From: a virus
Strand: one strand, 5' to 3'
IMG/VR virus record: IMGVR_UViG_3300028394_000034
DNA length: 64,000 nt
In this document: positions 6,558 through 60,953 of the stretch, one piece after another
Layout: each line of letters begins with the position of its first letter
Position numbering within the stretch: the first letter of the stretch is position 1
Position numbers and translations under genes: made by a program
Notes under the pieces: generated by a model
Databases searched by the model: none
The model's input: the letters and a program-made list of their open reading frames with translations, nothing else
Told to the model about the DNA's origin: nothing

Positions 6558-6593
6558 CCACCACCAAATACTTTAGAAGTTTTTTGGAATTTC

Positions 6594-6675: not shown

Positions 6676-6682
6676 GCGAGTC

Positions 6683-7506: not shown

Positions 7507-8207
7507 TGGGCTGGAAACAAGACATTAGCTAAACCACGAACACACAAGTCACATGATATACTATCTTTGGTTCCGGTGCAAGTGATTTCTGCACGACCAC
7601 GACGGATTTCGGGGCATACCACAAACTTTGTAGCATTGAGAACAACCAGCTTGGGCAGTGCTTTTCGCCATGCTTCGGCCTTGACTTTGCTCTTAGGACG
7701 CTTGGGAGCAACTTTCATGTCACTATCGCACCATGCAAACAACTTGAAACCTTGTGCCAATGCTTCGCCCATATCATTATCGTCATGCACACTAGCATAT
7801 ACATTCATATACTTTTCCAGACTCACAAGCCGAGCATCGTAGATATGAGTATAAAACCACATATCGGGCAAAGTATTACCATCGGCCAGAATACTCTCAC
7901 AAGCCCATGTTACATTCGCAACATAGTCTAGGTCAAGTTCTCCATTGAGAAACCAGTCGCCACGTTCATGCCAGCGAATAGACTTCTCACGACGCTTTGC
8001 TTCCAGAATCATAGCACGGATTTTATTCTTCTCCGTGATAACATTAGCAAACCCGGCAGTACGAGCATTTTTATACTGATTCTCGGTCGCTTCGGCATAA
8101 CAGCCGTTACCAAGATAGTCACAATCGGGAGGACAAGTATCGCCAACCGGACGCGAAACTACAATACAACCCTTACCCAACTTATCATTACCATCAGCAG
8201 TTTTCAT
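7503..8207 (-). CDS. Gp88-like Cys-rich phage protein
   Basis: GN.KLG, TCPPDC..CYA, IRWHERGD, WFYTH, YASV, CPE..ITC..CDLC..VLFPAH. Confidence 0.65.
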   Translation of the reverse strand: MKTADGNDKLGKGCIVVSRPVGDTCPPDCDYLGNGCYAEATENQYKNARTAGFANVITEKNKIRAMILEAKRREKSIRWHERGDWFLNGELDLDYVANVTWACESILADGNTLPDMWFYTHIYDARLVSLEKYMNVYASVHDDNDMGEALAQGFKLFAWCDSDMKVAPKRPKSKVKAEAWRKALPKLVVLNATKFVVCPEIRRGRAEITCTGTKDSISCDLCVRGLANVLFPAH

Positions 8208-8228
8208 GTTCTTCTCCTGTGTCTACCG

Positions 8229-8257
8229 ATTCTACACTATAGTATCGGCATAGTCAA
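8229..8257 (-). promoter_or_regulatory. sigma70-type early promoter
   Basis: TTGACT-17(CGATA)-TAGAAT. Confidence 0.85.
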
Positions 8258-8285
8258 GCGAAAAACTTGGAAAAATTATTCTTGA

Positions 8286-8367
8286 TGCAAGTCGTTGGTA
8301 GATAAGGACTTACGACGAACCGGGGCGGCCGGACTTGTCCTAAGTGCTTATGCAGTAAGGGTTTATG
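8286..8367. repeat. Family-A element A4
   Basis: 29+24+29 layout; 5 nt from the tRNA-Arg 3' end. Confidence 0.9.
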
Positions 8368-8372
8368 ACAAA

Positions 8373-8444
8373 TAGCCCCAAGAGGAATCGAACCTCTAAT
8401 AATTCTTTAGAAGAGAATTGTTATGTCCATTTAACTATGGGGCC
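8373..8444 (-). tRNA. tRNA-Arg(UCU)
   Basis: attct-CTTCTAA-agaat. Confidence 0.85.
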
Positions 8445-31039: not shown

Positions 31040-31447
31040 ATGGCAGCAAGTAAATATGATTTTGCTATAGAACAAGGAACTTCTTTTAGATTAGCTTTAA
31101 TCTATAAAGATTCCTCTGGCAATCCAGTAAATCTAACAAATTGGTGTGCTAGAATAATTTGGAAAACTAATACTAATGATACTCAGATATTTAGTTCTAA
31201 AAATACTGATTATAGTACATATAAATTTACTATAGACGGCCCAAACGCTAAATTGATGCTGTTATTACCAGCTAGCACCACAAATAACTTTAATTTCAAT
31301 ACGGCTAAATATGACTTAGAGTTAAAGTCTCCTGATCTTTTATATTCTGGAAATCCCGATACATATACTACCAGAATTTTATTTGGGACAATTACTATAG
31401 TTAAACGATTTAGTCAATCTAATATAGGATTAGGGTGCTCTTCATGA
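31040..31447 (+). CDS. Virion beta-sandwich (BppU-like) protein
   Basis: YDFAIEQG.SF...VNLT.W...AKYDLEL; paralog of the 43202 N-terminus. Confidence 0.55.
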   Translation: MAASKYDFAIEQGTSFRLALIYKDSSGNPVNLTNWCARIIWKTNTNDTQIFSSKNTDYSTYKFTIDGPNAKLMLLLPASTTNNFNFNTAKYDLELKSPDLLYSGNPDTYTTRILFGTITIVKRFSQSNIGLGCSS

Positions 31448-34526: not shown

Positions 34527-34544
34527 AGTGTATATCATAGTATA
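34527..34544 (+). promoter_or_regulatory. Putative late promoter
   Basis: AGTGTAT-N7-TATA. Confidence 0.55.
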
Positions 34545-34572
34545 CTTGACTACCTTTATAAATGGATCAATT

Positions 34573-37500
34573 ATGCCAGCAATTACGAATATTATTCTAC
34601 GCAAAGGACCAGCCTCTGAGTGGGTATCTGTGGACCCAGTTCTGAATAATGGAGAACCAGGATATGATACTACAAATAATATTCTAAAAATTGGAAATGG
34701 TACTCTTAGATGGTCATTATTGCCAATTGCTGGGGTCCAAGGTATTCAAGGATTGCAGGGTTTACAAGGAATATCTGGAAGTCAAGGCTTGACGGGTCTC
34801 CAGGGAATATCTGGTACTCAAGGAATTACTGGAAGTGGTAGTCAAGGTATATCTGGAAGTAACGGCAGCCAAGGCACACAGGGTATTTCTGGAAATAGCG
34901 GAAACAACGGTAGCCAAGGTACTCAGGGCATTACCGGAAATAGTGGAAGTAATGGAAGTCAAGGAATATCTGGTAGTAACGGTAGTCAAGGCATTTCTGG
35001 AAATAATGGTAGTCAGGGTATTCAGGGAATTACTGGTAATATTGGAAGCAATGGAAGTCAAGGCATAGCAGGAAATGATGGAGCTCAAGGAGCTAATGGA
35101 AGTGCTGGTAGTCAGGGAGCTCAAGGGATTACTGGGAGTCAAGGAACTAGCGGAAGCAATGGAAGTCAAGGCATAGCAGGAAATAATGGTTCCCAAGGCA
35201 TTTCTGGAATCAATGGCAGTCAAGGAACTATCGGAAGTCAAGGGATTACAGGAAGCGGAAGTCAAGGTTTACAAGGTGTCCAAGGATTAGGAGGTAATCA
35301 AGGCGTTCAAGGATTGGAAGGTAGTCAAGGTGTCCAAGGGACAAACTTTACAGGATATGATAATGAAATCCATGTTAGTCAAGTAGATGGAAATGATACT
35401 ACTGGTAATGGTGACTTATTAAATCCAGTTGCTAGTATTACCAAGGCTTTAACTTTAGTAGGATCTCAACGCAAAACAATTATTGTTCATCCCGGTGGTT
35501 ATACTGAAAATCCATCAATAACAGTTCCATATACAACTATAACTGGTCCGGGGCTTATTGGCGGTAATATAGTACTTTATGGAACATTAAGCACAAATAC
35601 TGGTTGTACAATTGCTGGAATAAAGATGACAAACCTGACCATAGCTACGCCAACTGGTGCAGGAAATGTAAATATTTTAAATTGTGAGATTTCTGGCACA
35701 TTTACAAAAAGCAGTAACGCCGACTACACTGTTCTTCGTTTATGTGACTATGGCTCCGCAAGTATTACTGGTGCAGGTTTAGTTGCTATTTTTGGTGGTA
35801 ATCCAAATTTTACAACAGTAAATAATGCTAGCGCAAATATAATTATTAAAAGCGCTGTTACTGTGGCTCCAGTTTTAACTTCTGGAACTTTAAGTCTTGT
35901 AGATTCTGTAGTAGTTGCTGCTGTGACAAATGCTATCACATCAGCCTCTTCAAGTATCATTACTTTAGCCAACTGTCAAATGCTAACTTCGGCATTAAGT
36001 AATGTCGCCCCAGTTGTACTAAGTGGATTTTATTCAATATTAAATTGCGTATATGATAAAACAAACTCAACACTAATAGCATTGTCTGCAACTGGCGGGC
36101 CTACTAATTCTATTGATTACTTTCAATATATTAATGCAGACAAGTTCATTACTCAGGGTGGGTCTTCTACCCAATTTGTGAAGGGAGACGGTTCTCTTGA
36201 TGCTACAGGACCAGTAGGTCCAACAGGATCTCAAGGCATAATGGGCGCTCAAGGTATTACTGGAAATAACGGAAGTCAAGGTGTCACCGGAAGTTCTGGG
36301 AGTCAAGGAATCTCTGGGAATACTGGAAGTCAAGGAATAACGGGTAGTCAAGGTTCTTCTGGAAGCAACGGCAGTCAGGGTATTACTGGAAGTGCTGGTA
36401 GTCAAGGAATAATAGGTAGTCAAGGAACCCAAGGCATTCAAGGATCGTACGCAAATTTAACTACATCTTTAGTTGCAGGAAGTAACATAACATTTACCTA
36501 CAACTCGGGAACAGACACTCTAACACTCAGCACAACAGTAGCACAAGGAACGCAAGGAGTTCAAGGAGTTACTGGTAGTGGCAGTCAAGGTGCCTCCGGT
36601 AGTAATGGTAGTCAAGGAGCACAGGGTATTACAGGTAATAGCGGCAGTAACGGTAGTCAAGGAACAGCTGGTAGTAATGGTAGTCAGGGAATTAGTGGAA
36701 GCAATGGCGTTCAAGGCACCCAAGGTATTACTGGAAATAGTGGAAGTAATGGGAGTCAAGGAGTTCAAGGAGTCACCGGAAATTCTGGTAGTCAAGGGAG
36801 TCAAGGAGTTCAAGGAACACAAGGATCATATGCTAATTTGACAACATCATTGGTAGCAGGAAGCAATATTTCTTTTAGCTATAATTCAGGAACAGATACT
36901 TTAACTCTTAGTACAACGGTAGCTCAAGGAACTCAGGGTATTCAAGGAATTACTGGTAGTGGTAGTCAGGGAACCTCTGGCAGCAACGGGACTCAGGGTA
37001 CAACAGGCAGTCAAGGTACTACCGGAAGTAACGGTAGTCAAGGCACAGCCGGAAGTAACGGCAGTCAAGGAATTACAGGAAGTCAAGGTATCTCTGGCAG
37101 CAACGGCAGTCAGGGAACAACAGGTACTACTGGAAGCCAAGGAACTACTGGTAGTCAAGGTACTACCGGAAGCAACGGTAGTCAAGGCACTTCCGGAAGT
37201 AATGGCAGTCAGGGTACCTCTGGTAGCAATGGCAGTCAAGGTACTATCGGAAGTCAGGGTATATCTGGAAGTAACGGAAGTCAAGGTTTAACTGGTACTC
37301 AGGGAACACAAGGCATTACCGGACCAGTTGCTGGTTCAGCAAATCAGGTTGTTTACAAAAACTCAAGCAATATTGCATCTGGAGTTTCTGATTTTGTGTT
37401 CGATGGAACTAATTTGGGTGTTGGAATAGCTTCACCAACTAGCAAATTACACGTAGTAGGAAATACTAATTTAGCCGGAACTTTAACCTTTAACGATTTT

Positions 37501-37803
37501 ACTGAAAGTGTCGTAGCTATAGGCAACAGCTCTACTGCTAAAACAATAGCTTTAACAAATGGAACTGTTCAAACTTGTACTCTTACTGGTAATTGTACAT
37601 TTACTATGCCAACTGCTACTGCTGGAAAAAGCTTTACCTTATTTCTAAATACTGGATCTGGTTCTTTTACATCGACTTTTACTGGCGTTAAGTGGTCAGG
37701 AGGCGTAGCTCCCACAGTCACTGTAACAGCTAGTAAAGTAGACATTTTAAGTTTTGTTAGTGATGGAACTTCATGGTATGGAGCATATAGTCAAAACTAT
37801 TAA
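34573..37803 (+). CDS. Collagen-like tail fibre (Mtd N domain, G-X-Y repeats, beta-helix-like insert)
   Basis: ILRKG..EW...P.L..GEPGYD; long GSQ/GIT/GSN triplets; C-terminal head. Confidence 0.8.
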   Translation: MPAITNIILRKGPASEWVSVDPVLNNGEPGYDTTNNILKIGNGTLRWSLLPIAGVQGIQGLQGLQGISGSQGLTGLQGISGTQGITGSGSQGISGSNGSQGTQGISGNSGNNGSQGTQGITGNSGSNGSQGISGSNGSQGISGNNGSQGIQGITGNIGSNGSQGIAGNDGAQGANGSAGSQGAQGITGSQGTSGSNGSQGIAGNNGSQGISGINGSQGTIGSQGITGSGSQGLQGVQGLGGNQGVQGLEGSQGVQGTNFTGYDNEIHVSQVDGNDTTGNGDLLNPVASITKALTLVGSQRKTIIVHPGGYTENPSITVPYTTITGPGLIGGNIVLYGTLSTNTGCTIAGIKMTNLTIATPTGAGNVNILNCEISGTFTKSSNADYTVLRLCDYGSASITGAGLVAIFGGNPNFTTVNNASANIIIKSAVTVAPVLTSGTLSLVDSVVVAAVTNAITSASSSIITLANCQMLTSALSNVAPVVLSGFYSILNCVYDKTNSTLIALSATGGPTNSIDYFQYINADKFITQGGSSTQFVKGDGSLDATGPVGPTGSQGIMGAQGITGNNGSQGVTGSSGSQGISGNTGSQGITGSQGSSGSNGSQGITGSAGSQGIIGSQGTQGIQGSYANLTTSLVAGSNITFTYNSGTDTLTLSTTVAQGTQGVQGVTGSGSQGASGSNGSQGAQGITGNSGSNGSQGTAGSNGSQGISGSNGVQGTQGITGNSGSNGSQGVQGVTGNSGSQGSQGVQGTQGSYANLTTSLVAGSNISFSYNSGTDTLTLSTTVAQGTQGIQGITGSGSQGTSGSNGTQGTTGSQGTTGSNGSQGTAGSNGSQGITGSQGISGSNGSQGTTGTTGSQGTTGSQGTTGSNGSQGTSGSNGSQGTSGSNGSQGTIGSQGISGSNGSQGLTGTQGTQGITGPVAGSANQVVYKNSSNIASGVSDFVFDGTNLGVGIASPTSKLHVVGNTNLAGTLTFNDFTESVVAIGNSSTAKTIALTNGTVQTCTLTGNCTFTMPTATAGKSFTLFLNTGSGSFTSTFTGVKWSGGVAPTVTVTASKVDILSFVSDGTSWYGAYSQNY

Positions 37804-43201: not shown

Positions 43202-44119
43202 ATGCCAGCTATCAATTATAATTTTGTTATCGAACAAGGATCTGCTTTTGAGATTATCTTTCAGTACTATGATAGTAATGGAGCCTCAGTAGATCTAACA
43301 AACTGGTGTGTTTTACTACAATACAGAACAGATGCTAACAATATCCTCTCTTTCTCCAACAAGTACGACGGTTCTGCTTATAGTATGACCACAGATACTT
43401 TGGGACAAATCATACTCAGGATACCTTCAAAAACAACAACAACATATGCTTTTGGTAGTGCTGTCTATGATTTGGATTTACAAGAGCCAAATGAGCAATA
43501 TCCTAATAGTGGATTAAAAACCTACAGGCTAGCTACAGGAACTATTTCTATTGCAAGAAGAAATATTGATCCAGCATTATCTGACTGTGCCAGTACCACG
43601 GCGGGATTTCAAGCTAATGTTTGTAATATTGAATGTGGTAAATTAGATATCTATTCAGCAGTTTATGATGGTGGTTCTTTAACTATTCCAGATATGGGAG
43701 CTGTGAGCGGAAGCATAAGCACAAATGACACTAGACTTATTGAAAATATAGAGCTTGCTATCAACGGACTAAGACACAATAGTCCACAAGATCTTACTCT
43801 TCTTTTAGCTCCTCCTTCTGGCAATAAAATTTTATTATCGTCTCATAATAAGATAAAAAATTATGCTCCTGGTTTTAGCTTTATGTTTTCTAATAAAGCA
43901 GCATCAGGGACTTACATTAATAATATCAATAGTGGAGCATATTGTAATATTTCTAATAAGACTAATACCACTCGATATAATGGAGAAACACTATTAAGTA
44001 GTTTCGATCATCTTTTTAATAATGCTGTTAATGGACAATGGAAGTTTTGCGTTATTGATGATGATATTGGAACATCTGGTACTATTGACTCTTGGAAATT
44101 AATTATCACCTACAAATAA
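43202..44119 (+). CDS. Virion protein: BppU-like N-domain plus proprotein-convertase P domain
   Basis: YNFVIEQGSAF; H..PQDL.L.L..PSG...; NGQWKF.V.DD..G.SG.IDSW.L. Confidence 0.6.
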   Translation: MPAINYNFVIEQGSAFEIIFQYYDSNGASVDLTNWCVLLQYRTDANNILSFSNKYDGSAYSMTTDTLGQIILRIPSKTTTTYAFGSAVYDLDLQEPNEQYPNSGLKTYRLATGTISIARRNIDPALSDCASTTAGFQANVCNIECGKLDIYSAVYDGGSLTIPDMGAVSGSISTNDTRLIENIELAINGLRHNSPQDLTLLLAPPSGNKILLSSHNKIKNYAPGFSFMFSNKAASGTYINNINSGAYCNISNKTNTTRYNGETLLSSFDHLFNNAVNGQWKFCVIDDDIGTSGTIDSWKLIITYK

Positions 44120-48859: not shown

Positions 48860-49165
48860 ATGAAAGATAAAGATCAACTAATGTATGATATGGAAAAAAG
48901 ACTAAAGACAACCATGATTGGAGCTATAGCTAAATTTGAAGAATCATTTGGATATTTATGGGAAGAGGAAAGTGATAAAAGATTAATTTATGATAGCTTG
49001 TGGGAACAAACTCGTAATAATATCCTAAATCACGGCAATCACCAAATAAGATTGGCTCTAAAAGAATTAGGAGAAGCTTTATACAACCAACCGGCCTTTA
49101 AAGAAAAATATCACTATAAGTTCTATTTTAACAAGAATGACAGAGGAGACTCATATGAAAACTAA
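48860..49165 (+). CDS. Hypothetical protein
   Basis: Operon position. Confidence 0.5.
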   Translation: MKDKDQLMYDMEKRLKTTMIGAIAKFEESFGYLWEEESDKRLIYDSLWEQTRNNILNHGNHQIRLALKELGEALYNQPAFKEKYHYKFYFNKNDRGDSYEN

Positions 49166-50042
49166 GACATTTACAGCAGAAGTAGGAACAGAGAAGACAG
49201 AGAAGGAATTTTTAGTTCGTTCACCATCATTAACTGATCAAAGAGAAGCCCAGAAGGTTTATAATCAGGCCTTTACAGACGCTATTAAGAGCAAGAGCGT
49301 GGTAAGAGCAAAGCTAGATGATCTTCTTGCAGATCAGGGACTATGGAATGATGAGAAACAGGCTAAGTTCTCTCTTCTGCAAAAAGAACTGCTAGATGGA
49401 GAAAAGCAATTAGCAAAGGGTGGTTTTAGTTTAAATGAGGCCAAAGACCTTGCTATTAAAATGAAAGGTGTACGAGATGAAATCCGAGACCTAATTAGTG
49501 TTCGTACATCATTAGATAATCATAGTGCAGAAGGTCAAGCGGATAATGCTAGATTTAACTATTTAGTCTCAGCTTGCTTGGTGTATAATGATACTAAACA
49601 GCCATACTTTAGTAGTATGGAGGACTACCTTAATAGGGCAACGGAACCGGCAGCAATATTGGGTGCTCAGAATTTGGCTAATATGTTATATGGTTTGGAT
49701 AATGATTACGAAAGTGGATTACCAGAAAACAAATTTTTAAAGAAATATAAGTTTGTTGATGATAAACTAAGGTTGATTGATAAAAAGGGTCGTCTAATTG
49801 ATTCTGAAAATAGACTAGTTGATGATAGTGGTCGTTTTATTGATGAACAAGGTAATTTTGTTGATAAGTACGGCAATAGAGTTGATAAAGAAGGAGATTA
49901 TGTTGTTGAGACTAAACCCTTTTTGGACGATAATGGAAACCCTATTATTCTCGATGAAGAAGCCAATGAAACTAAACAACAGGAACAACCAGCCGAAGCT
50001 CCAGCAGTACCAACACCAGAGCCCAAAGTCTCTGAAGAATAA
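49155..50042 (+). CDS. Putative tail assembly chaperone
   Basis: Immediately upstream of the tape measure; GGAGA RBS. Confidence 0.5.
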   Translation: MKTKTFTAEVGTEKTEKEFLVRSPSLTDQREAQKVYNQAFTDAIKSKSVVRAKLDDLLADQGLWNDEKQAKFSLLQKELLDGEKQLAKGGFSLNEAKDLAIKMKGVRDEIRDLISVRTSLDNHSAEGQADNARFNYLVSACLVYNDTKQPYFSSMEDYLNRATEPAAILGAQNLANMLYGLDNDYESGLPENKFLKKYKFVDDKLRLIDKKGRLIDSENRLVDDSGRFIDEQGNFVDKYGNRVDKEGDYVVETKPFLDDNGNPIILDEEANETKQQEQPAEAPAVPTPEPKVSEE

Positions 50043-50132: not shown

Positions 50133-53100
50133 ATGGCATCAGCATTTAACTTAACAGCTCAATTAAATCTACGAGGTCCATCTAATGTTAGTGCTATTGT
50201 ATCTAATATTAGAAGACAGCTTGGTACCATTAGTGCAAATGTTAATGTAAATATTAATCCAACAACAACCAGAAATGTAGCACAGCTTAGTGCCTCTTTA
50301 AATAATCTTAATAGAACATTTGGAACTACCACGACATCAGCTAATAATGCTGCAAGAGCACTACAAAATTTTGGCAATTCTGTTGCTCAATTTAGTAATA
50401 ATATCCGCAATGTTCCTCAACAAATCAATAATACTACCAGTTCAATTGCAAGATTAAATGCTGCTATGACTTCCTCTAGAGCCACCTCGGCGGCTGCTGG
50501 AACAGAAATGCAAGAGTTCGGTAGACAAGCAGGATTAGCCGCCAGAAGATTTGCTGCTATTTCAACGGTAACAAGTGTTATCTTTGGATTAACTAGCGCT
50601 ATTAAAGCAGGTGTTCAAGCCTTTATTGACTATGATAGAGAGTTCATTAAGCTGCAACAGGTTACTGGTGAATCTGCTGCTGGACTAAAGGGCCTTAGTG
50701 ATACTATTGGTAGTTTATCTACTAGTCTTGGAGTATCATCTAAAGAATTAGTAGACGTATCTAGTACTTTAGCTCAGGCTGGTTTAAGTGCAAGAGATAC
50801 AGAGAAAGCATTAAAGGCTTTAGCATTAAGTGCATTAGCTCCATCCTTCGATGATATGAATAAAACGGTAGAAGGATCTATTGCTTTGATGAGACAGTTC
50901 GGAATTAGTGCTGGAGATTTAGATAAAGCTTTAGGTTCGGTTAATGCTGTTGCTGCTAAGTTTGCTGTTGAAGCTAGTGATATTATTACTGCCATTCAGC
51001 GTACTGGTGGTGTGTTCGCTACTGCAAGTAAGGGAGTAAGTGAAGGAACAGATGCTTTAAATGAATTTATTTCAGTATTTACTAGCGTAAGAGCAACAAC
51101 TCGTGAAAGCGCTGAAACAATTGCTACCGGTTTAAGAACAATCTTTACCAGAATTCAAAGAGGAGATACAATAGAGGCCCTTAAAGAGTATGGTGTTAAT
51201 TTACAAGATCTAGATGGTAAATTCGTTGGGGCATTTAAGGCTGTTCAGCTTTTAAGTCAGGGATTAAGTAAATTAGATCCTAGAGATTTAAGTTTCTCAA
51301 AAATTGTTGAAGAGCTTGGTGGATTCAGACAGATCGGTAAGGTTATTCCATTAATTCAGCAGTTTGCCACAGCACAAGACGCATTAAAGGTTGCACAAGC
51401 TGGACAAGGCTCGTTAGCCGCCGACGCTGCAAAAGCACAACAATCTTTAGCAAATCAGATTAGTAAAGTTCGAGAAGAATTTTTATCATTGTTTAGAGAG
51501 ATTGGTAGCTCTGACGGTTTTCAAACTATTATTAAAGGAGCATTAACATTAACTAGTACTTTAATTAAAGTAGCAGATAGTGTTAAGGGAATTTTACCCG
51601 CTCTTGCAGCTATGTTGGCTTTTAAAGGAGCTTCTTCATTAGTTCAGTTCGGTGCAGGCTTTGTTGGAGCAGTAAGAGGACAAAGAAGAGCAGAGGGTGG
51701 TACTATCAGAAGATATGCTGCTGGTGGACATGTTCCTGGTTCTGGAGATGGAGATACTGTTCCTGCAATGTTAACTCCTGGCGAATTTGTCATGAGAAAA
51801 CAAGCTGTTCGCAGTATTGGAGTAAATAATCTTCATAGTTTAAATAGGAATGGTGGAGGACTAATACAAAGATTTGCTAATGCTGGAGAAGTATCTGATT
51901 TATCTAAGACAGAAAGGACACACATAGGACCAAAGATCCAGATATCTGCAAAAGAAGCAAAAGAAGCTAGAACTTATGGATACAAACAGGCATATGCATC
52001 TTTAGGAGTAGAAAGACAAATTGATTTTAAGCCTCATCTTCCAGCTGAATGGAATCAAAGATGGAGAAGAATTGGCTCAGGAGAACCAGTCCCGTCTAAA
52101 GATATTATAGACTATGTAGCCTCAAGAACTCCTCCTCAATTATTCGGTAATCAAGGGATCCCTCTGAGACTATATCAAAAACTATCAAGTATAAATAAGC
52201 TATCATCACTTAAACAAACTTTTTTAACTGGTTTGTCTAAACTTCCACCGACGGTATCAAAAGATCCACAATTAGATTTTATTTTACCGCAGTATATTAA
52301 ACCATTTTTAGAATCACTAGATTTATGGGGACAATTATCTAAATCACAGACACTAAGCGTTCCAAAAGAATTCTCTGGAGTTAGTGTTTTTGATAGATTA
52401 AGAATGAAAGGTGTTCCAAGAGAAAAAAGACGAACTACAACTAAGGTACGATCTGCTTTGGCAGAAAAATTTGGTGATACCTTTGCTGATGGTGGTTCGG
52501 TTCGTAAATTCGTTGATGCTGGTATGGTGACACCAACATCAGGCAGAGCAGCTACTTCTACTGATATCTTCAGAGTTCTTACTCTAGATGAAGTTATTAA
52601 AGATACTGGATCAAATCCTGGAGATATACAAAGAATATTAAAGAAAAGAAATGCACTAAGTCCATCAGAACAAGCTATCAAAGATAAAATTTTAGCAAAA
52701 TACACAGAGAAAACTTCTGGTATTAAAAAAGCAAATAATCTTGATATAGAAAAAGCAACTACAGAGGGTCTTTTGTTCGGAGCTGCTGGGTTTAAGGGCA
52801 AAGCTTTTGCTACAACTCCAAGAATAGATATTCCAGGACTACAAAATCCAGTTAAAGTTAGAATTACTAGTGGTGTTTTAGATTCTGAAATGTCAAAGAA
52901 GCTATTAAAGAAGATGAGTGGTGGACTAAATGACATAGCAAATAAAGCCTCAAGAAATATGATGATCAAGGATATCTTGAAGCAAACTGGTCCAATATAT
53001 GCTGATTTTGATAGAACATTAGCTTTCGGTGCTGACAAGATTTTAGCAGATCCAAGAAAACCCAAATATAGTGAGTTCTCTGATAGAAATAAAGTTCAGG

Positions 53101-56100
53101 GAGCCCTAGGAAAAGCCAAACTTAGTGCTCTAGGAGCAGCTATTGTTAGTACAATAAAACAAGCTCCGGAGTTTGCCAATAACCTAAATATTATTTCTGC
53201 TAGACCACAATCTACTATGGATTTGGTGGCCGGATGGTTAGCCCAAAAGGGTATTCCAATTCCTCTTAGTAGAATTAAGGGTGTTGGTGGAGAGAATGTC
53301 ACAGCAGAACAAATTGCCGTTCTCAAAGCAGACTTGATGAATCCAGAGGGAGCTTTTGTTGACGACGATGATAGAAATGTTGCAGAAGCTGAGAAGAGAG
53401 GTATTCGATCATATCTATATAAAAAGAAAAATGTTGGATCGGTATCAAGAAAGAAGCTTGGAGAAGCGAATGCACAAGGTTATTTAGCTGAGAGAATTAT
53501 TCACGAGCTAGGTGGTCCAATAGCTAATAAGGCCACAACAAACTACGGCATAGACTTTCCAGATGGCCTACAAAGTGCTGCTAAATACTTTAATCTTCCT
53601 TCAAATATTCCAACAGACGCTAAATTAACTCTTAATGGCCCAGCAGAACTAAAGGGTCAGATTGGCAATTATCTTAAAGCCAGAGGCTATGCATCAGGTG
53701 GACATGTTCAAGCTATGGTTTCTGCTGGCGAAGCTTTTGTTCCACCAGAAGAAGCAAGGCAAATAGGATATGGCAAATTAAATCGAATGAATCAAGCAGA
53801 TCGTAATGGAATGGGTTCATTTTCGTCCGGAGGCATTAGTGTTTTTAAAGGACCAGGAACAGGAACTAGTGATAGTATCGGACCAGTATCTTTACCAGTA
53901 GGTGGTTTTGTCCTTCGTGAAAAAGCAACAAAGGCTTTAGGTTTACGTTCTGGTGGTTCTGTTGGAGGAGTTAAAAGATTTCTCACTGGAGGAACAATAG
54001 AAGACGCTTCTGATGCGCTAGTTAATGCTAATAATAGAGCTATAAGACCAAGCGTTAGAAGTTTAGATAGTCGTTTAAATATTCCAACAGCACAATTAAA
54101 TGAACTAGGAGCTGCTTTAAGAGCAAGTGGAGTTCAGATGACTCAATTTGCTCAATTAGCAAGTAGAGGAGGAGATGTCTCTGTAGCTGCTGCAAAAAGA
54201 GCAATAGAAGCAGATATTAGACATTCTGCCTCTCTTGGAACAGCAACAGTATCTACAACAGCACTTACAGCAGCTAGAGAAGTATTAACTAGAGTTCAAA
54301 GTGTAGAGGCAGCTTCTGCTGAAAATGTTTCAAGAACAAGACAATCGATAGTTGCTCAAAGATTTCAAAATATAGGAAATACTGTTTCAAACGTCCCTGT
54401 TGTTGGAGGTGCAGTTCGAGGATTAGGTCGTGTTGGAAATGGATTAAACGGTCAAGGAGGATTTATTGCTTCTATGGCAGTAGGAGCTTTGGCTGGACAA
54501 GGGGAAAATATTTTTGGTAAAAAAGACTCAAGCGAAGGAGCAGCTAGAAGTAATGCCAAGCTTGAATCAGGAGCTACTGCATTATCAACAGGATTAGGTT
54601 TAGCTAGTTCAGTAGCTATGATTCCTGGTGTAGGCCCAGCATTAGCTGGAACCATAGCAATAGGAACAGCATTAGCAGTCGCTGCTGATTCTGTTTATGA
54701 CTTCTCAGGAACAGCACAGAAAGCTAGTCAAGAATTTAAACAAGGAAAAAGAACTAAAAATATAGAAGATCTTGGAGAGAGAGTTGGTAAGTCTATGGAG
54801 GCTTATCAAAAAAATCCAAGTGGAGCTAAAGAAAGAGCAGCCCTTATATCTGATTCATTACAACAAAGTAGAGCAATATCAAATGACTCTACAGAAAGAG
54901 TTAAAGACCTAAAAGCTTCAAGAGCACCGAATATCTTCCAAAGAGGACTAATAGGTCTCGGACTATCTTCTGCTAAAGGGATTGGCAATGAAGATTTAAT
55001 GCAGATCTCAAAAGAGAGTGCCAAAAAAGCAGAACCCGCTGCTGATGCTGCTAGAAAAATAATCGAACAAAGAGTAGATTCTGGAGAAAAATTATCAGAT
55101 ATTACTAATCCAGCAAGCAAAGAGTTTCAACAATTAACAGAAATTATCGCCTCTGCTAATCCAGAATTTATTAATGCTAGAGATAGAATCATGGAGATGA
55201 GCGATGCTGCTGTCGCTACCACGGGAAAAACTAAAGAGGGATTAATTGCTGAAAGATTAAGAATTGAAGGAGCAAAAATTGCTAATGATGGCTATTTAAC
55301 AGCTAAGGAAAAAACAGCAGCAGCTGCTAAAGCTATGGAGGAGGCTGATAAGGCCGGACGTCAGCTTGCCCAAAGTTTCCAAAGAATGGTTAATACATTT
55401 AATCAGGCTTTAGGCAAGGTAACATTTAATTTGGAAAAAATGGAAAATGCTAGTCAAGCTAATATAGCAGCTCTTAATGGTAATGCAAAAGTTAGTCAGG
55501 TTGTTTCTAAGAACTTAAATGTACTATCTAATCCTAGAGCTTATTCTCAAAATGAAAGAAATACTGCATACGATAATGTTTCTGCTCCTTTTGGTCAAGA
55601 TAAAGATTCAGTAAGAAAGCTATTAAATTTAGATAGTGAGAATTTAGGATTCTCTGTTAGAAACAATATAAATTCATCTCTACAAGATAGGGCTGGACTA
55701 ACTCTTGATAAAGCAGCATCAAGTAGCAGAAAAAACCTAGAACAAGAAATATCAAATCTTCCAGAGATTGTTAGAAATGAAATTTTAGGTAAATTTGATG
55801 CTATTGCAGGAAAGGTTGCTTCTGATACTACTCCAGGTATGAGTGAACAAGATAAAGTAAATAAATTAGCAAACCTATTAGAAGAAGAACTAGGTAAAGC
55901 GGCCTCAGAATCTGCTCAAAATGTTAGAAATATGGCTATCGAGTTTGAGAAAGCCAGAGTGGGAGCTCTTAATAACTTTATAGATAGTATCAATAATGCA
56001 GCAGAAGCACAAAGAAAAGCACAGAAATCTATGGCTGATGCTAGAGAAACAAGAATTGCTGGAGGAGATGCTATTAATGAAGTTCTTGGTGGTGCTCCAA

Positions 56101-59100
56101 GATCAGTAGCAACTCTACAAGGAAGACAAAACTTTAATATTGGACAATTAACTGGAGGAATAACTGATCCAGTTAAGATTAGAGAAAACATAGAAAGAAA
56201 AAATGCACGAAGAAGCCAACTAGAAGAACAAAAACAACAATTAGCAGAAGCAAAAGGAAATAATGATCCTGGAGTTATACAGCTTAGTGGTCAAATTGCT
56301 GGACTAAATACTGAAATAGCTAATAGTAGTGATGCTCTTGGTCAATTAGCTAATAGTACAGAAATAGCAACAGCTGCTTTGAATAAAATCAAAGATATTC
56401 AACAGCAAATGTCTGCCCAGGGAGATTTCTTAGATCGACTAGCAACCTCAACTCCAGAAGAAGCAGATAAGCTAGCTAAAACTTTCCAAAGACTACAAAA
56501 TAATTTGGCTGGAGGATTTAATGACGCTAGAGGCTCGCAAGCTGCACAAGAAGCATATTCAAACGCATTGCAGTCTGGAAGTAGTCATGATCAGGCAAAA
56601 ATGGCAGGTGATGCTGTTCTTGCCCAAGAGAGAGCAGAAGTATTGTCTCTGTTTAAAGACCTAAAGCCATTATTGTCTCTCTCAGGTAAGTCTGATGCTC
56701 AAATTAATGCAATGCAAGGAACAGTACGACAAGGAGTTTATACTGAAAGTGGACTACTTAATAATCCTATGTTAGGAGGAATAGCTCAAGGACAAATAAA
56801 CTATGATAGAAACCCACTTAATAATCCCGCACTACGCCAAGCGGTCGCCGAACACGATGCCGCAATCGAGAATAGAGCAGTTGCTCAAGAACAAGAAGGA
56901 AAACTTCAACTTAAAGTTGCTTCTGAGACTATGGCCTCTGCCGCCGCCAAATTTGCAGAAGCAACCCAGAATTTTGCAAAAATATTTGAGGAAATGAGAA
57001 ATGGAGATAGAAAGGTTGAACCTCCACAAAGACCCGCGCCAGGACTACCAAGAGTAGCAAATGCTCCAGCAAAAGCAAAGGGAGGATTAATATATGCTAG
57101 TGAAGGCATGTTGGTTAATTTTAAACCAAAAGGTCCAGATGTTATTCCTGCAATGCTAGCTAAGAACGAATATGTAATTAATGCTAAAGATACTATGAGA
57201 AATCTTCCTTTATTAGAAGCTATTAATAGTGGAGAAAAAATACAATATGCATCTAAGGGAGGTAAAGTAGGATATCATGCTAATGGTGGTGGTCCAATTA
57301 GCGCCTCTCGTGAATTTGCTTTACTTGATAAAAACAAAGATGGAATTTTAAGCCTACAAGAAGCTGGCGAGTATATTAAATTTGACACTAATAAAGACAA
57401 AAGAATTACTATAAGCGAATTTAATTCTCAATTTATGGCAGACAAGGAGGAAGGAAATAGAGTTAATAGAGGTGTTTCTGTTCTTAGAAGCAAAGAACAT
57501 TCTAGAAATGAAGCATTTAGAAGAGGAGTATCAGAATCTCAAGTAAGATATGAAAGAAGAGCATTATTTGCTGAGAGTAAACCAGTTAAACCTAATGCTG
57601 CTACTAGACCAGGAATGGATCAAGCTCCACCAAAAGAAAATCCTGTAGATAATGTTCCTCCTGTTCCTAAGCCTTCACCATCTAGTTCTCCACGCGGAGC
57701 TGAAAGAGAAGATCCGGCAGTTACAGCAGCTAAGAGACAACAGAGGGAAATGGATGAAGTAAGAGAAATACAAAGAAAATGGCAGGAGGATCGTGTTCTG
57801 CCTAATGCTAGAGAAGAAGCATTATTAAAAAAATATGAACAGAGACAAAGAGAAGAATCATTAAGTGAAAATCGAAGTAAAAATGAAGAAGGAAGAGTTA
57901 TTGATCAAGGAGGAGCTCCAACAACAGAATGGGGAAGAAAATATAAAGCACAGCAAGATGCAAGAAGACAAAAAAGAGAAGAAAAACTAAGAGAAGAACA
58001 GAAAAAACAAGATGATGATATGGCAGCTAGAAGAAAAGCAACAGAAAAAGCTGCTGAAGCTGCAAATAACGATCCTGAGGTACAAAAAGAAAGAGCAGAA
58101 CGAGATGCTCGCTACAAAGCAGAAGCCGAAGCTGCAAAAGCAGATGCAGCCAAATGGGCAGCAGAGAATCCAGAAGAAGCTAATAAGCTTCTGAAAAGGA
58201 ATCCAGAAACTGGTTTGATAAGTCCAGCAGAAGACAGACCTACTACTGGAGACTCATATACAGATAGATTAAGATACAGAGCTGCTGCTGATGCTCTCTA
58301 TAAAAGAGAAGAAGAAAAGAAACTTCAAAAAGAAGCAGAGGATGCTGATAAAAAAGAAAAAGCTAGTCTTGAGTCTGCATTTAAGATGGGAGAAAAAATT
58401 TACGAGAGAGAGGAAGCAGAAAGAAAACAGAAAGTACAAGAAGCAAGAGATGCAGAAGAAGAAAGACAATATCTTGCAACTCCAGAAGGACAAGAAAGAG
58501 CAAGAAGAAGCCAGGAGCAAGTAGAGCAACAAAATCTTGAGGCTTTTAGAGCAAGAAAACAGAAAGAAAAAGATGATAATGAAGCGGAGCGTGCTCGTCG
58601 TGGAGGCGGATTAGGAGGAATGACACAAAAAGATGTTGATGATGCTAATAAAACATATCAAGAATATACAGATTATGCTGGGGCAGTAGCTGGAGGGTTT
58701 TTTGAGGGATTAACAAATAATCCAATGACAAGAGTTTTATCTGGTGTTGGTTCAGCAGGAAGATATGCTGTTCAAACAGGAGCGGTAGCATTAACTACAG
58801 CAGCATCCCGAGCTATTGATCAACAAGCTAGAACACAGGCTAATTATGGTAGTCTTGGATCTTCTTCTGATGATAAACCATTAGATATTAATGGTCCAGA
58901 ATACAGAGCATATTATGATAGTCTTGGTAAATTACAAGATGCTAGTGCGGCAGGATTACAAGCAGGAGTAGTTGAGACAGCAGGAGGATTAACATCATAT
59001 GTAGATAAAAAAACGGGTAATCAACTCCTAAATTATTCAGATAGACTTAATGCACAAAGACAAGGATTAGAAGATCAATATTTGGAAGGGGCTGATGAAA

Positions 59101-60953
59101 CAACTAGAAGAACATATTCTTATGCTAATGAGGCAGCAAATTATACTCTTGACCCAACTCTTACTGCCGGAGCAGGAGTTGCAGCAAAAGGAGCTAGTAG
59201 AGTAGCTGGAGCAATAGATGCAGCAGATACTGCAAGGAGAGCAGCAGCTGAAGCAGCAGCCAAAGCAGCTGACGACGCAGCTAAAGCAGTAGCAACAAGA
59301 ACAGCAGAAAGAACAGCAGCAGCAGCTAAAGCAGCTGACGATGCAGCTGCAAGAACAGCGGCAGTAGTACGAAAAGAAGAGAAAGCAGCATCAGAAGCAT
59401 TAGCTATGGCTGACAGCACTCCAGATTTCACTCCTCCGAGAGCAACAGATGGAGGCCCCCCACAAGTTCATGGTGAAGATTTTTATGTTAATCCTGGAGA
59501 AGCAGAACAAGCGGCTGTCATGAAGAAAGCGGCAGATGAAGCAGCAGCAAGAACAGCAGCAAGAGCAGCAGAAAAAGAAGCAGCAGAAAAAGCAGCTAGA
59601 CAAGCAGAAACAAAATATCCTGTTAAGAATCCTTCACAAGAATTTAAAGACGCATATGATAAAGCAACAGCTGAAGCAGCAGCAAGGGAAGCTAGTAGAC
59701 CAAAGCCACAGACAGTAACTAATAATCAACCAGATTTAGATAAATCTTTAGATGATTATAGTAAAATTAAAGGAAATGACCCAGCAGCGCCAGCAACAAA
59801 ACCAAGATACGACTTAGACGCAGCTGTAAAACAAGATAAATTTGGCACTACTGCAACCAAAGATCAAACAGGACAAGTAGCTTCTCAACGAGCAATGGAA
59901 GGAACCGCACCAACAGCTCCAACATATCCGGCGACTCCAACAACTTCAACATATCCAAGTCCAACCCCAAGAATAAAACCAGCTGTTCGTCCATTTAGTA
60001 GAAGAGCTGGAGAATTAGCTTTAGTTGGAGGAACAACTTCAGCTGCTACTTATTTTGGAGATACTATGGGTAGGCAGATATTTACCCCGGTAGCAGAGAT
60101 GAATGATGGACTACCTCCTCTTCCTAATACTCCCCCTCAGCCAGCATTTATGCAAAATAGAGTGCCTATGGGACAAGGAGAAGTAGGAAGAGGAGGGGAT
60201 GATCTTCCAAGAGCAAATGAAGAAGACTTAGACAGAAAAAAGAAAAATGCAAAACCTAAATCTTTAGGTGGTTTAATTTATGCTAGTAATGGAGCACTGA
60301 TATCTGCCAAAAAGTCTGGTGCTGATAGGCATTTAGCAATGTTGTCTGATAATGAATATGTGGTCAATAATAAAGATTCACTAAGACACAGAGGATTGTT
60401 AGACGCTATTAATAGTGGTAATTATAGTCGTGGGGGTATAGTTAATTACATGGCTAATGGTGGAGTTGTAGGGGCAAAATATTATCAAAAAGCTGGTTTA
60501 GTAGATCATAGTGGTAATGTTCCTAGTGGAGGATCCTCCGGTGTATCTAGTAATAGTCAAATGTCGGCTGATGCTCTTAGTTCTGTTGTGGATAAATTTG
60601 GACAGCATGTGAATAATATTGCTCCTGCAATTAGCCAATTTGGAGAACACGTTGGTCAAGTATCTCCAGCGTTGATGTCTTTTGGTGGAATGGTTGGTGC
60701 TTTCGGAGGTCATGTAGAAGCTATGAGCGCTGGAGGAACTGTTAGCCATACTCATAGTGTAGAAAATAATCATAGATTTATTGGTGGTGAAAGTATTAAT
60801 AATGTATTGAACACTATGGGTGATGGTCTTAAGATAGCAGCTGATAATAGATTAAAGGATACTCTAAGAAATATTGATACATATAACGAAAATTCACTAT
60901 TAAGAGGCACAGACGCTCAAAGTATTATGGGTAAAAACAATAATATAGCATAA
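50133..60953 (+). CDS. Tape measure protein (3606 aa) with embedded domains
   Basis: TP901-like TMP N-domain (FIDYDREFIKLQQVTG, LAQAG, NAVAAKFA); Ala/Gly-rich helical body; five GG..PAML..E motifs. Confidence 0.9.
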   Translation: MASAFNLTAQLNLRGPSNVSAIVSNIRRQLGTISANVNVNINPTTTRNVAQLSASLNNLNRTFGTTTTSANNAARALQNFGNSVAQFSNNIRNVPQQINNTTSSIARLNAAMTSSRATSAAAGTEMQEFGRQAGLAARRFAAISTVTSVIFGLTSAIKAGVQAFIDYDREFIKLQQVTGESAAGLKGLSDTIGSLSTSLGVSSKELVDVSSTLAQAGLSARDTEKALKALALSALAPSFDDMNKTVEGSIALMRQFGISAGDLDKALGSVNAVAAKFAVEASDIITAIQRTGGVFATASKGVSEGTDALNEFISVFTSVRATTRESAETIATGLRTIFTRIQRGDTIEALKEYGVNLQDLDGKFVGAFKAVQLLSQGLSKLDPRDLSFSKIVEELGGFRQIGKVIPLIQQFATAQDALKVAQAGQGSLAADAAKAQQSLANQISKVREEFLSLFREIGSSDGFQTIIKGALTLTSTLIKVADSVKGILPALAAMLAFKGASSLVQFGAGFVGAVRGQRRAEGGTIRRYAAGGHVPGSGDGDTVPAMLTPGEFVMRKQAVRSIGVNNLHSLNRNGGGLIQRFANAGEVSDLSKTERTHIGPKIQISAKEAKEARTYGYKQAYASLGVERQIDFKPHLPAEWNQRWRRIGSGEPVPSKDIIDYVASRTPPQLFGNQGIPLRLYQKLSSINKLSSLKQTFLTGLSKLPPTVSKDPQLDFILPQYIKPFLESLDLWGQLSKSQTLSVPKEFSGVSVFDRLRMKGVPREKRRTTTKVRSALAEKFGDTFADGGSVRKFVDAGMVTPTSGRAATSTDIFRVLTLDEVIKDTGSNPGDIQRILKKRNALSPSEQAIKDKILAKYTEKTSGIKKANNLDIEKATTEGLLFGAAGFKGKAFATTPRIDIPGLQNPVKVRITSGVLDSEMSKKLLKKMSGGLNDIANKASRNMMIKDILKQTGPIYADFDRTLAFGADKILADPRKPKYSEFSDRNKVQGALGKAKLSALGAAIVSTIKQAPEFANNLNIISARPQSTMDLVAGWLAQKGIPIPLSRIKGVGGENVTAEQIAVLKADLMNPEGAFVDDDDRNVAEAEKRGIRSYLYKKKNVGSVSRKKLGEANAQGYLAERIIHELGGPIANKATTNYGIDFPDGLQSAAKYFNLPSNIPTDAKLTLNGPAELKGQIGNYLKARGYASGGHVQAMVSAGEAFVPPEEARQIGYGKLNRMNQADRNGMGSFSSGGISVFKGPGTGTSDSIGPVSLPVGGFVLREKATKALGLRSGGSVGGVKRFLTGGTIEDASDALVNANNRAIRPSVRSLDSRLNIPTAQLNELGAALRASGVQMTQFAQLASRGGDVSVAAAKRAIEADIRHSASLGTATVSTTALTAAREVLTRVQSVEAASAENVSRTRQSIVAQRFQNIGNTVSNVPVVGGAVRGLGRVGNGLNGQGGFIASMAVGALAGQGENIFGKKDSSEGAARSNAKLESGATALSTGLGLASSVAMIPGVGPALAGTIAIGTALAVAADSVYDFSGTAQKASQEFKQGKRTKNIEDLGERVGKSMEAYQKNPSGAKERAALISDSLQQSRAISNDSTERVKDLKASRAPNIFQRGLIGLGLSSAKGIGNEDLMQISKESAKKAEPAADAARKIIEQRVDSGEKLSDITNPASKEFQQLTEIIASANPEFINARDRIMEMSDAAVATTGKTKEGLIAERLRIEGAKIANDGYLTAKEKTAAAAKAMEEADKAGRQLAQSFQRMVNTFNQALGKVTFNLEKMENASQANIAALNGNAKVSQVVSKNLNVLSNPRAYSQNERNTAYDNVSAPFGQDKDSVRKLLNLDSENLGFSVRNNINSSLQDRAGLTLDKAASSSRKNLEQEISNLPEIVRNEILGKFDAIAGKVASDTTPGMSEQDKVNKLANLLEEELGKAASESAQNVRNMAIEFEKARVGALNNFIDSINNAAEAQRKAQKSMADARETRIAGGDAINEVLGGAPRSVATLQGRQNFNIGQLTGGITDPVKIRENIERKNARRSQLEEQKQQLAEAKGNNDPGVIQLSGQIAGLNTEIANSSDALGQLANSTEIATAALNKIKDIQQQMSAQGDFLDRLATSTPEEADKLAKTFQRLQNNLAGGFNDARGSQAAQEAYSNALQSGSSHDQAKMAGDAVLAQERAEVLSLFKDLKPLLSLSGKSDAQINAMQGTVRQGVYTESGLLNNPMLGGIAQGQINYDRNPLNNPALRQAVAEHDAAIENRAVAQEQEGKLQLKVASETMASAAAKFAEATQNFAKIFEEMRNGDRKVEPPQRPAPGLPRVANAPAKAKGGLIYASEGMLVNFKPKGPDVIPAMLAKNEYVINAKDTMRNLPLLEAINSGEKIQYASKGGKVGYHANGGGPISASREFALLDKNKDGILSLQEAGEYIKFDTNKDKRITISEFNSQFMADKEEGNRVNRGVSVLRSKEHSRNEAFRRGVSESQVRYERRALFAESKPVKPNAATRPGMDQAPPKENPVDNVPPVPKPSPSSSPRGAEREDPAVTAAKRQQREMDEVREIQRKWQEDRVLPNAREEALLKKYEQRQREESLSENRSKNEEGRVIDQGGAPTTEWGRKYKAQQDARRQKREEKLREEQKKQDDDMAARRKATEKAAEAANNDPEVQKERAERDARYKAEAEAAKADAAKWAAENPEEANKLLKRNPETGLISPAEDRPTTGDSYTDRLRYRAAADALYKREEEKKLQKEAEDADKKEKASLESAFKMGEKIYEREEAERKQKVQEARDAEEERQYLATPEGQERARRSQEQVEQQNLEAFRARKQKEKDDNEAERARRGGGLGGMTQKDVDDANKTYQEYTDYAGAVAGGFFEGLTNNPMTRVLSGVGSAGRYAVQTGAVALTTAASRAIDQQARTQANYGSLGSSSDDKPLDINGPEYRAYYDSLGKLQDASAAGLQAGVVETAGGLTSYVDKKTGNQLLNYSDRLNAQRQGLEDQYLEGADETTRRTYSYANEAANYTLDPTLTAGAGVAAKGASRVAGAIDAADTARRAAAEAAAKAADDAAKAVATRTAERTAAAAKAADDAAARTAAVVRKEEKAASEALAMADSTPDFTPPRATDGGPPQVHGEDFYVNPGEAEQAAVMKKAADEAAARTAARAAEKEAAEKAARQAETKYPVKNPSQEFKDAYDKATAEAAAREASRPKPQTVTNNQPDLDKSLDDYSKIKGNDPAAPATKPRYDLDAAVKQDKFGTTATKDQTGQVASQRAMEGTAPTAPTYPATPTTSTYPSPTPRIKPAVRPFSRRAGELALVGGTTSAATYFGDTMGRQIFTPVAEMNDGLPPLPNTPPQPAFMQNRVPMGQGEVGRGGDDLPRANEEDLDRKKKNAKPKSLGGLIYASNGALISAKKSGADRHLAMLSDNEYVVNNKDSLRHRGLLDAINSGNYSRGGIVNYMANGGVVGAKYYQKAGLVDHSGNVPSGGSSGVSSNSQMSADALSSVVDKFGQHVNNIAPAISQFGEHVGQVSPALMSFGGMVGAFGGHVEAMSAGGTVSHTHSVENNHRFIGGESINNVLNTMGDGLKIAADNRLKDTLRNIDTYNENSLLRGTDAQSIMGKNNNIA

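Follow-up and report, generated by a model that had tools for sequence, protein, structure and literature searches.

A giant phage tape measure protein with an embedded, predicted HAD-superfamily phosphatase and repeated joint motifs at which relatives exchange modules

Tape measure proteins (TMPs) are usually viewed as rulers with a further part in forming the DNA channel. The window analyzed here, 64,000 nucleotides (nt) of one strand of the IMG/VR virus record IMGVR_UViG_3300028394_000034 (199,884 bp in the source record, with direct terminal repeats), encodes a TMP of 3,606 amino acids (aa) that contains, between repeated joint motifs, a predicted phosphatase of the haloacid dehalogenase (HAD) superfamily. 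Our comparison of this protein with its relatives leads us to propose, with moderate confidence, that the chain carries an intact phosphatase between joints whose intervening modules are swappable and that the tail brings ready-made enzymes into the host. The gene and its conserved N-terminal part are as follows:

50133..60953, plus strand: TMP gene, 3,606 aa (P0001); single frame, matches to PF10145, TIGR01760, and PHROG TMP families, and gene order.
50133..51677, plus strand: core TMP part, aa 1–515, with the TP901-type domain at aa 152–496 and hydrophobic segments at aa 140–165 and 477–504 (family models and hydropathy); present in 90 of 104 relatives.

The gene is one continuous frame of 3,606 codons. 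The original prediction, made from the letters of the DNA, that it encodes a TMP is borne out by matches to PF10145 at aa 190–384 (1.3e-22, 81.1 bits; cut-off 33.2), to TIGR01760 at aa 152–496 (2.6e-28, 99 bits; cut-off 28.8), and to PHROG TMP families at aa 40–512 (phrog_28, 6e-34). Upstream on the same strand lie genes for a terminase large subunit, a portal, a head decoration protein, and a collagen-like fiber, together with a weak major-head match. The head and fiber genes occupy 23.6–37.8 kb, and the TMP gene, at 50.1–61.0 kb, is the longest gene of the tail module. No sheath protein was recognized. The model matches and the structural-gene context indicate that the product is the TMP of a large, probably long-tailed, phage. 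Because a 100% identical protein occurs in independent assemblies and collinear relatives are found at 77% identity, the gene is not an assembly chimera. A candidate tail-chaperone frameshift upstream (48860–50042) was rejected; the overlap has the look of a plain translational restart served by a Shine-Dalgarno sequence of its own.

Relatives were collected by similarity to the region that spans the HAD domain, a conserved element that follows it (termed E), and the next motif. The HAD–E module is shared by 104 clusters at 50% identity, nearly all of them 2,000–7,900 aa long, and the majority of the 132 proteins drawn from 90% clusters match PF10145; a few short HAD–E proteins (162–420 aa) are also present. 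Judged from these sequences, giant TMPs (2,000–7,900 aa) form a large family, to which this protein belongs and which is seen only in uncultured phages, on contigs mostly of 76–250 kb. Searches of a cultured-phage collection by megablast with the whole gene or by tblastn with aa 560–1356 gave no match, and the motif unit alone does give matches. The family thus exceeds 100 clusters at 50% identity without a member in the cultured-phage collection searched. Residues 1–580 resemble an ordinary TMP in full, with a coiled N-terminus, a TP901-type domain, a hydrophobic segment, and a Gly-rich motif like that of lambda gpH. The rest of the chain reads as a string of modules divided by motif copies and by short [FY]AxGG heads.

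The module that carries our argument is the phosphatase:

52989..53420, plus strand: HAD-superfamily phosphatase domain, aa 953–1096, with D958, D960, T962, S1022, K1065, D1077, and D1078 (alignment, AlphaFold, Foldseek, and VIA).

The HAD motifs follow one another in the expected order, as DFDRT (aa 958–962), ISARP (aa 1021–1025), K1065, and FVDDDD (aa 1075–1080). D958, D960, T962, S/T1022-A-R-P, K1065, D1077, D1078, and N1082 are invariant in 13 loci whose identities span 36–87%. In a wider alignment, D958, D960, and S/T1022 are each retained in 130 of 130 sequences; 125 of 131 retain K1065, and ~95% retain D1077 and D1078. Searches of Pfam, NCBIfam, and PDB sequences with the HAD–E segment gave no useful match. 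The AlphaFold model has a pLDDT of ~90 across the domain, and the Foldseek matches obtained with it are almost exclusively HAD-superfamily proteins or HAD-like domains. VIA-align places the model closest to the T4 Pnkp 3'-phosphatase (5uj0; Z 11.9, rmsd 3.0, 126 aa), with Pnkp1 (4xrp) at Z 11.0, AphA (2b82) at Z 10.8, and many HAD phosphatases at Z 9–12 (model residues 1–169). The HAD-like domain that had been read from the letters at about 52990–53420 is therefore upheld by the model, by the T4 Pnkp match, and by motifs kept in ~130 relatives: aa 953–1096 fold as a HAD-superfamily phosphatase with intact catalytic residues, which we predict to be active. The model also contains a ~55-aa helical insert after motif I, so the domain is not cap-less.

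The sub-class of the phosphatase is not fixed, because the Z values to T4 Pnkp, Pnkp1, and AphA fall within ~1 of each other. The T4 Pnkp 3'-phosphatase and the class B acid phosphatase AphA, the best structural matches (rmsd 3.0–3.6 over 126–151 aa), have the same pattern of DxDxT and DD(D)D motifs as the TMP domain, but with a sequence identity of 12–14% the likeness is at the level of the fold only. T4 Pnkp also has a 5'-kinase domain and a partner RNA ligase, whereas this TMP has no kinase domain and this genome has no RNA ligase. No AAA_33 or Pnk-type kinase was found in the phage genome. Its sole ligase is an ATP-dependent DNA ligase (L048:979-2334, beyond the window; PF01068 4e-22, plus an OB domain), which also accounts for the RNA_ligase match. 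The idea that the injected phosphatase serves RNA repair is weakened by the lack of an RNA ligase and of a Pnk-type kinase, and we rank such a role low.

The same structural matches raise the question of where the phosphatase would act. It could work in the cell envelope and not in the cytoplasm, helping the tail tip to cross the wall or membranes in the manner of peptidoglycan hydrolases embedded in other TMPs, for example, by dephosphorylating envelope polymers or lipid carriers. The periplasmic enzyme AphA is tied with T4 Pnkp as best match (Z 10.8 versus 11.9), the HAD module lies between the hydrophobic segments at aa 477–504 and 1483–1518, and the genome has no RNA-repair partners. In addition, known TMP enzymes, except the P23-45 RNA polymerase, act on the wall (PMC1796659; PMC12617516). 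However, ADP-ribosyltransferases that relatives carry in the neighboring slot need NAD+, which points to the cytoplasm, and the sequence holds no sign of an envelope substrate. Taken together, these observations make an envelope role unlikely in our judgment.

The joints that divide the chain are the second element of the proposal. Copies of the motif and one short head are located as follows, with bit scores from a profile of 480 motif units from relatives, built with this protein and near-identical copies left out:

51693..51860, plus strand: joint motif copy 1, type A, GG..YAAGGHVPGSGDGDTVPAMLTPGEFV..IG..NL..LN, aa 521–576; 72.5 bits; aligns with lambda gpH aa 727–782.
53688..53813, plus strand: joint YASGG and motif copy 2, shortened type, aa 1186–1227 (motif proper aa 1187–1227, from nt 53691); 25.0 bits; homology to L003 and P0004 ends here.
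53820..53942, plus strand: motif copy 3, divergent sub-type GPGTGTSDSIGP..LPVGGFV, aa 1230–1270; weak against the main profile (-3.1 bits); the same sub-type follows copy 2 in relatives.
53979..53993, plus strand: short joint FLTGG, aa 1283–1287, from the [FY][ASGLT]xGG count.
57075..57239, plus strand: joint motif copy 4, type B, GGLIYA..G..VNF.P.G.D.IPAML...EYV, aa 2315–2369; 58.4 bits.
60267..60437, plus strand: joint motif copy 5, type B, degenerate, aa 3379–3435; 36.4 bits.

The maximum that the profile reaches over 200 shuffles of the protein is 0.7 bits. All five copies that had been noticed by eye, at about 51714, 53688, 53815, 57075, and 60255, are thus recovered in place, four of them strong (25–72 bits) and the third weak. 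The weak copy 3 represents a conserved sub-type (GPGTGTSDSIGP..LPVGSF / GPGTGTSDSIGP..LPVGGFV) that is found after copy 2 in several relatives as well. The short FA.GG heads described as punctuation are likewise more frequent than composition predicts: the protein contains 6 instances of [FY][ASGLT]xGG, whereas 2,000 shuffles average 0.59 and never reach 6. Among 187 giant relatives, the consensus is GG.vYA..G...n..P.GTDTVPAMLTPGEFVvN..At...L.LL..IN. Its residues D, P, A, L, P, G, E, and V are individually conserved at 93–99%, and 186 of the 187 relatives contain 1–10 copies. Over 524 motif units, the core residues are conserved at 96% (D), 97% (P), 99% (A), 97% (G), 99% (E), and 99% (V). For ~100 of 186 relatives, the largest group, the final copy stops 100–250 aa from the C-terminus (median 186 aa). 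The motif copies are old duplicates, because their DNA is just 71–83% alike over 29–42 nt. The distances between copies form a broad hump at 950–1300 aa without a sharp period, and no claim of a fixed ruler unit is made.

Comparison with near-identical relatives reveals what happens between joints. The segments concerned, from the end of copy 1 to the start of copy 2, are the following, with the HAD domain lying between segment C and E:

51873..52481, plus strand: cassette B, aa 581–783; ~20% identity inside versus 93–100% outside (P0002, P0108); present in 3 of 104 relatives.
52482..52496, plus strand: short joint FADGG, aa 784–788, the right border of cassette B (breakpoints and [FY][ASGLT]xGG count).
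52497..52979, plus strand: segment C, aa 789–949, preceding the HAD domain; kept in 40 of 104 relatives.
53460..53687, plus strand: E element, aa 1110–1185, with G1116, E1120, D1141-F-P-x-G, and I-P-T-D1162-x-K1164-x-T; conserved in ~190 relatives.

The nearest relatives, P0002 and P0108, are 93–100% identical to this TMP over aa 1–578. The identity returns from aa 786 in P0108 and only from ~aa 840–900 in P0002. Between these points, cassette B is replaced in both by an unrelated sequence of similar length (~20% identity), and the breaks lie precisely behind '...NRNGGGLIQ' and at 'FADGG'. At the DNA level, homology with L002 and L003 stops at the same two joints, and homology to L003 stops also at the YASGG joint after E. 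Searches with cassette B in Pfam, NCBIfam, PDB, and the ESM Atlas gave no lead (the Atlas returned unnamed clusters with low recognition values), and searches with segment C in Pfam, NCBIfam, and PDB sequences gave no useful match. Across the family, the HAD-to-E length is fixed (interquartile range 219–236 aa); the gap from motif 1 to the HAD domain spans 297–1,762 aa, and that from E to the next motif spans -8 to 1,649 aa. The slot directly after E holds a PF03496 ADP-ribosyltransferase domain in 3 of 10 relatives tested (26–32 bits, cut-off 23.4; L033:6154-7653, L025:6011-7510, and L040:6229-7728), a domain that this TMP does not have. One relative is named a thermonuclease-family endonuclease by its source.

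These alignments show that modules are exchanged among relatives, with breakpoints exactly at the joints. The earlier suggestion that the motif marks modular insertion points is in line with the swapping of cassettes exactly there in near-identical relatives, and the content between motifs varies among relatives both at cassette B and in the ADP-ribosyltransferase slot. The replacement of cassette B between near-identical phages amounts to a natural experiment on slot function. As a separate observation, cassette B may be a good target for learning what a slot does.

An alternative account of such a chain involves no delivery at all. Growth by duplication of internal units is known for TMPs, and the protein could be a very long ruler that arose in this way, with the HAD domain acting in the producing cell during tail assembly or persisting as a structural relic. 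Much of the chain is low-complexity or charged and Ala-rich, and the age of the motif copies (DNA 71–83% alike over 29–42 nt) agrees with such growth. However, the catalytic residues D958, D960, and S/T1022 are kept in 130 of 130 sequences at identities down to ~30%, which favors a selected activity, and neither the replacement of a cassette by a non-homologous one nor the insertion of ADP-ribosyltransferases is expected from simple lengthening. We therefore regard this account as quite improbable.

The E element, by comparison with the cassettes, behaves differently. It had been described as a restriction-endonuclease-like segment at about 53460–53690, and the E...IDF...TDAK segment is indeed present (aa 1116–1166). 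Its signature is conserved in ~190 relatives: position 1120 is E in 176 and Q in 14, D1141 is kept in 190 of 190, position 1162 is D in 111 and E in 68, and K1164 is kept in 177 of 189. These are the residues E ... D ... (D/E)xK of the PD-(D/E)xK signature, and the interchange of D and E at 1162 is as expected for such a site. E could then be a minimal PD-(D/E)xK nuclease, and the TMP would deliver a phosphatase–nuclease pair. The fold, however, was not recovered. Two AlphaFold runs on the element (13 and 21 sequences) gave a pLDDT of ~50 and helices only, with no β-sheet, models too poor for a fold search or for excluding the fold. No Pfam family, nuclease families included, was found in 21 members at E up to 10, an E-element profile matched no PDB sequence, and the ESM Atlas returned unnamed clusters only, with low recognition values. 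At ~75 aa, the element is also short for an α-β-β-β-α-β core. The signature therefore stands, the nuclease fold is not supported, and the nuclease assignment is rather unlikely.

The distribution of E argues against its being inserted cargo. E is found without the HAD domain in ~60 relatives, and in L044 and L046 it comes directly after motif copy 1 with a gap of ~100 aa. Because it is present with or without the HAD domain and can follow motif 1 directly, E is best read as a core piece of the TMP family and not as swapped cargo, a position that suits a structural role in the TMP no less than an enzymatic one.

The motif itself is not a new device. A search of solved-structure sequences with profile A6, built from 28 motif units, matched the mycobacteriophage Douge TMP gp16 (8zdo_S) in two copies (E 1.8e-5) and lambda gpH (8iyk_H) at aa 753–782 (E 0.005). 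Direct reading of lambda gpH aligns aa 727–782 with the entire unit, from an FATGG head to a GEFV...IG..NL tail, and a hydrophobic Gly-rich segment precedes the motif there as it does before copy 1 here. With copy 1 as the query, tblastn returned 173 cultured-phage records, mostly annotated TMPs (Gordonia, Rhodococcus, Clavibacter, Achromobacter, and others); in Achromobacter phage JWF, the motif is ~60 aa from the TMP C-end. The motif also occurs in a protein of cyanomyophage S-SM2 that adjoins the baseplate-hub genes (gp26, hub assembly catalyst) and in a protein of Synechococcus phage S-SCSM1 (MK867354.2 / NC_070962.1) that is annotated as a lysozyme/endolysin, near 164.3 kb, so it is not limited to siphophage TMPs. 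On this evidence, the joint is the lambda gpH-type C-terminal TMP motif, multiplied in this protein and not special to this phage.

The lambda match bears on what the joints do. Lambda gpH is cut in a Gly-rich region at ~aa 690–730; neither the site nor the protease has been identified (PMC12617516). A link between this cleavage and the joint motif is suggestive. The joints could be proteolytic processing sites, with the chain cut at or beside each copy after tail assembly or ejection and the modules freed. The cut in lambda gpH lies just upstream of the same motif (aa 727–782), the motif core is conserved like an enzyme site (D 96%, A 99%, E 99%, and V 99% of 524 units), and a division into separate domains by cleavage has been proposed for polyvalent injected proteins (PMC5512222). 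Yet the lambda cut falls before the motif and not inside it, so that the association of cut and motif is one that we infer, and neither the TMP nor its neighbors yielded a protease domain. The strong conservation equally fits a docking or assembly role, and a ruler cut before the tube is assembled could no longer measure length, so that any cleavage would need to occur late. For these reasons, processing at the joints is rather unlikely. A bolder version would make the joint a functional device, common to classical TMPs, that directs lambda gpH cleavage into gpH* and gpHC and that giant TMPs reuse repeatedly to cut an ejected polyprotein into enzymes, the phosphatase in this phage and ADP-ribosyltransferases, among others, in relatives. 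Under this version, the tail would act as a programmable injector of multiple effectors, and recombination at the joints would swap its cargo slots. We consider this version improbable.

The reading that we prefer, delivery of an intact phosphatase on a chain with exchangeable modules, can be stated as a sequence of steps. The chain would lie extended or unfolded in the tail lumen, as other TMPs do, and would be expelled ahead of the DNA; both steps are modeled on what is established for TMPs and on P23-45 gp96 (PMC10770324). Once in the host envelope or cytoplasm, the modules would fold and act ahead of phage gene expression, and the phosphatase module would remove phosphate from a substrate in the host. 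The joints may serve as flexible, Gly-rich, recombination-prone linkers. If this is correct, delivery falls when the phage is most exposed to host defenses.

Several points weigh against this proposal. Host entry and the activity of the modules are predictions from sequence and models. A folded HAD domain of 150 aa cannot fit a tail lumen a few nm wide beside sister chains; it must be stored unfolded and, we assume, refold later. This TMP contains one confirmed enzyme module, so that the notion of a multi-enzyme cargo rests on the relatives. No significant Pfam HAD or PNK3P model is found on the sequence (PNK3P none even at E up to 10). Conservation by itself partly predicts that homology resumes at a conserved motif, and the clean breakpoints are only the borders of cassette B and the E/YASGG border.

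Downstream of the HAD–E module, the chain is dominated by long stretches of biased composition:

54000..57062, plus strand: long Ala-rich stretch, aa 1290–2310, with a strong hydrophobic segment at aa 1483–1518 (composition and hydropathy).
57315..57428, plus strand: EF-hand pair, aa 2395–2432 (PF00036, 30.6 bits, two stretches).
57480..60242, plus strand: charged and Ala-rich low-complexity stretch, aa 2450–3370 (composition); closest relatives only.
60450..60950, plus strand: C-terminal 167 aa, Gly/Ser-rich; weakly similar to P0012 and P0111 at their C-ends.

The second half of the aa 1290–2310 stretch is common to 39 of 104 relatives, and the stretch is probably a ruler or channel part. Its segment at aa 1483–1518 (54579–54686) has the highest hydropathy anywhere in the protein (Kyte-Doolittle 1.76 over 19 aa). 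It lies well C-terminal to the core and, together with the segment at aa 477–504, brackets the HAD–E module. The EF-hand pair (DKNKDGILSLQE, DTNKDKRITISE) comes just after motif copy 4. PF00036 scores 30.6 bits (cut-off 25.4) when aa 2370–2480 are searched alone and 20.3 bits, below the cut-off, with the whole protein; EF-hand families are listed for several giant relatives too. The region between copies 4 and 5, which comprises the EF-hand pair and the charged, Ala-rich stretch, is shared solely with the closest relatives. Its length of ~1,000 aa and its charged, Ala-repeat composition are as originally described; aa 2450–3370 contain 27–40% K/R/D/E and 14–20% Ala, with short GCAGCA-type DNA repeats. 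The part at aa 2450–2900 (57480–58832), with 40% K/R/D/E and many E/R/K runs, looks like a single-α-helix spacer and would fit a ruler segment. From its position, the C-terminal 167 aa are likely a tail-tip anchor.

Other features of the window lie outside the TMP gene. The gene at 34528–37803 encodes a 1,091-aa fiber whose N-terminus bears an Mtd_N domain (PF18454, 9e-11), named for the Bordetella phage tropism determinant, and which contains long stretches of collagen triple-helix repeats (PF01391, 5e-69). The products of 43202–44119 and 31040–31447 share an N-terminal phrog_1084 domain, joined in the former by a proprotein-convertase P-domain (PF01483, 1.4e-7). The minus strand carries seven clustered tRNA genes (Lys, Glu, Ser, Asn, Gln, Thr, and Arg) at 4915–8444, where the surrounding G+C content is 42–45%, as compared to 33–38% in the structural region.

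Parts of this arrangement have counterparts in known systems. Ordinary TMPs, such as lambda gpH, Douge gp16, and those of the cultured phages, share the '[FY]AxGG...GEFV...IG..NL' motif but have one or two copies near the C-end, whereas five are found in this protein and as many as ten in its relatives. In the giant TMPs, unlike in ordinary ones, hundreds to ~1,300 aa separate successive copies, and foreign modules fill the intervals. The motif region is not resolved in the structures of either Douge or lambda.

Enzymes within TMPs have also been described. In mycobacteriophage TM4 and in T5 pb2, enzyme motifs are built into the TMP and act on the host at infection (PMC1796659; PMC12617516). 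Those enzymes cut peptidoglycan, whereas this TMP carries a HAD phosphatase instead; Pfam scans detected no muralytic domain in it. Among titles and abstracts of the literature pairing 'tape measure' with 'haloacid dehalogenase', no TMP–HAD fusion appears. The polyvalent proteins of phages and conjugative elements combine variable effector domains, including ADP-ribosyltransferases, in one large polypeptide (Iyer et al. 2017, PMC5512222) and, as proposed for this TMP, are thought to enter with the DNA and act before gene expression (PMC5512222). This TMP has one confirmed enzyme (HAD), the EF-hand pair, and cassettes without a family match, to which relatives add ADP-ribosyltransferases. Polyvalent proteins, however, usually have a self-cutting metallopeptidase (PMC5512222), and Pfam scans of the whole TMP and of its segments found no peptidase. 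The scaffold in this case is the tail ruler. TMPs and phosphatases are not mentioned in that study (Iyer et al. 2017, PMC5512222).

The closest precedent is P23-45 gp96, a 5,002-aa TMP with a fused virion RNA polymerase, found also in P74-26, G20c, and TSP4 (Chaban et al. 2024, PMC10770324). Like the protein described here, it is a giant TMP, from a long-tailed phage, that carries an enzyme in the same polypeptide; the gp96 enzyme is a working one and is proposed to act at DNA entry, ahead of phage gene expression (PMC10770324). The two have no sequence relation beyond the TMP role, and gp96 has its RNA polymerase at the N-terminus, whereas the HAD domain here follows the core. Repeated joints and cassette exchange are undescribed for gp96, and the giant TMP presented here is known from its sequence and from models. 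If the proposal holds, this family would extend the P23-45 case to a general, modular delivery of ready-made enzymes ahead of the genome, and the putative link between the joint and lambda gpH would make the old question of gpH cutting testable in a model phage.

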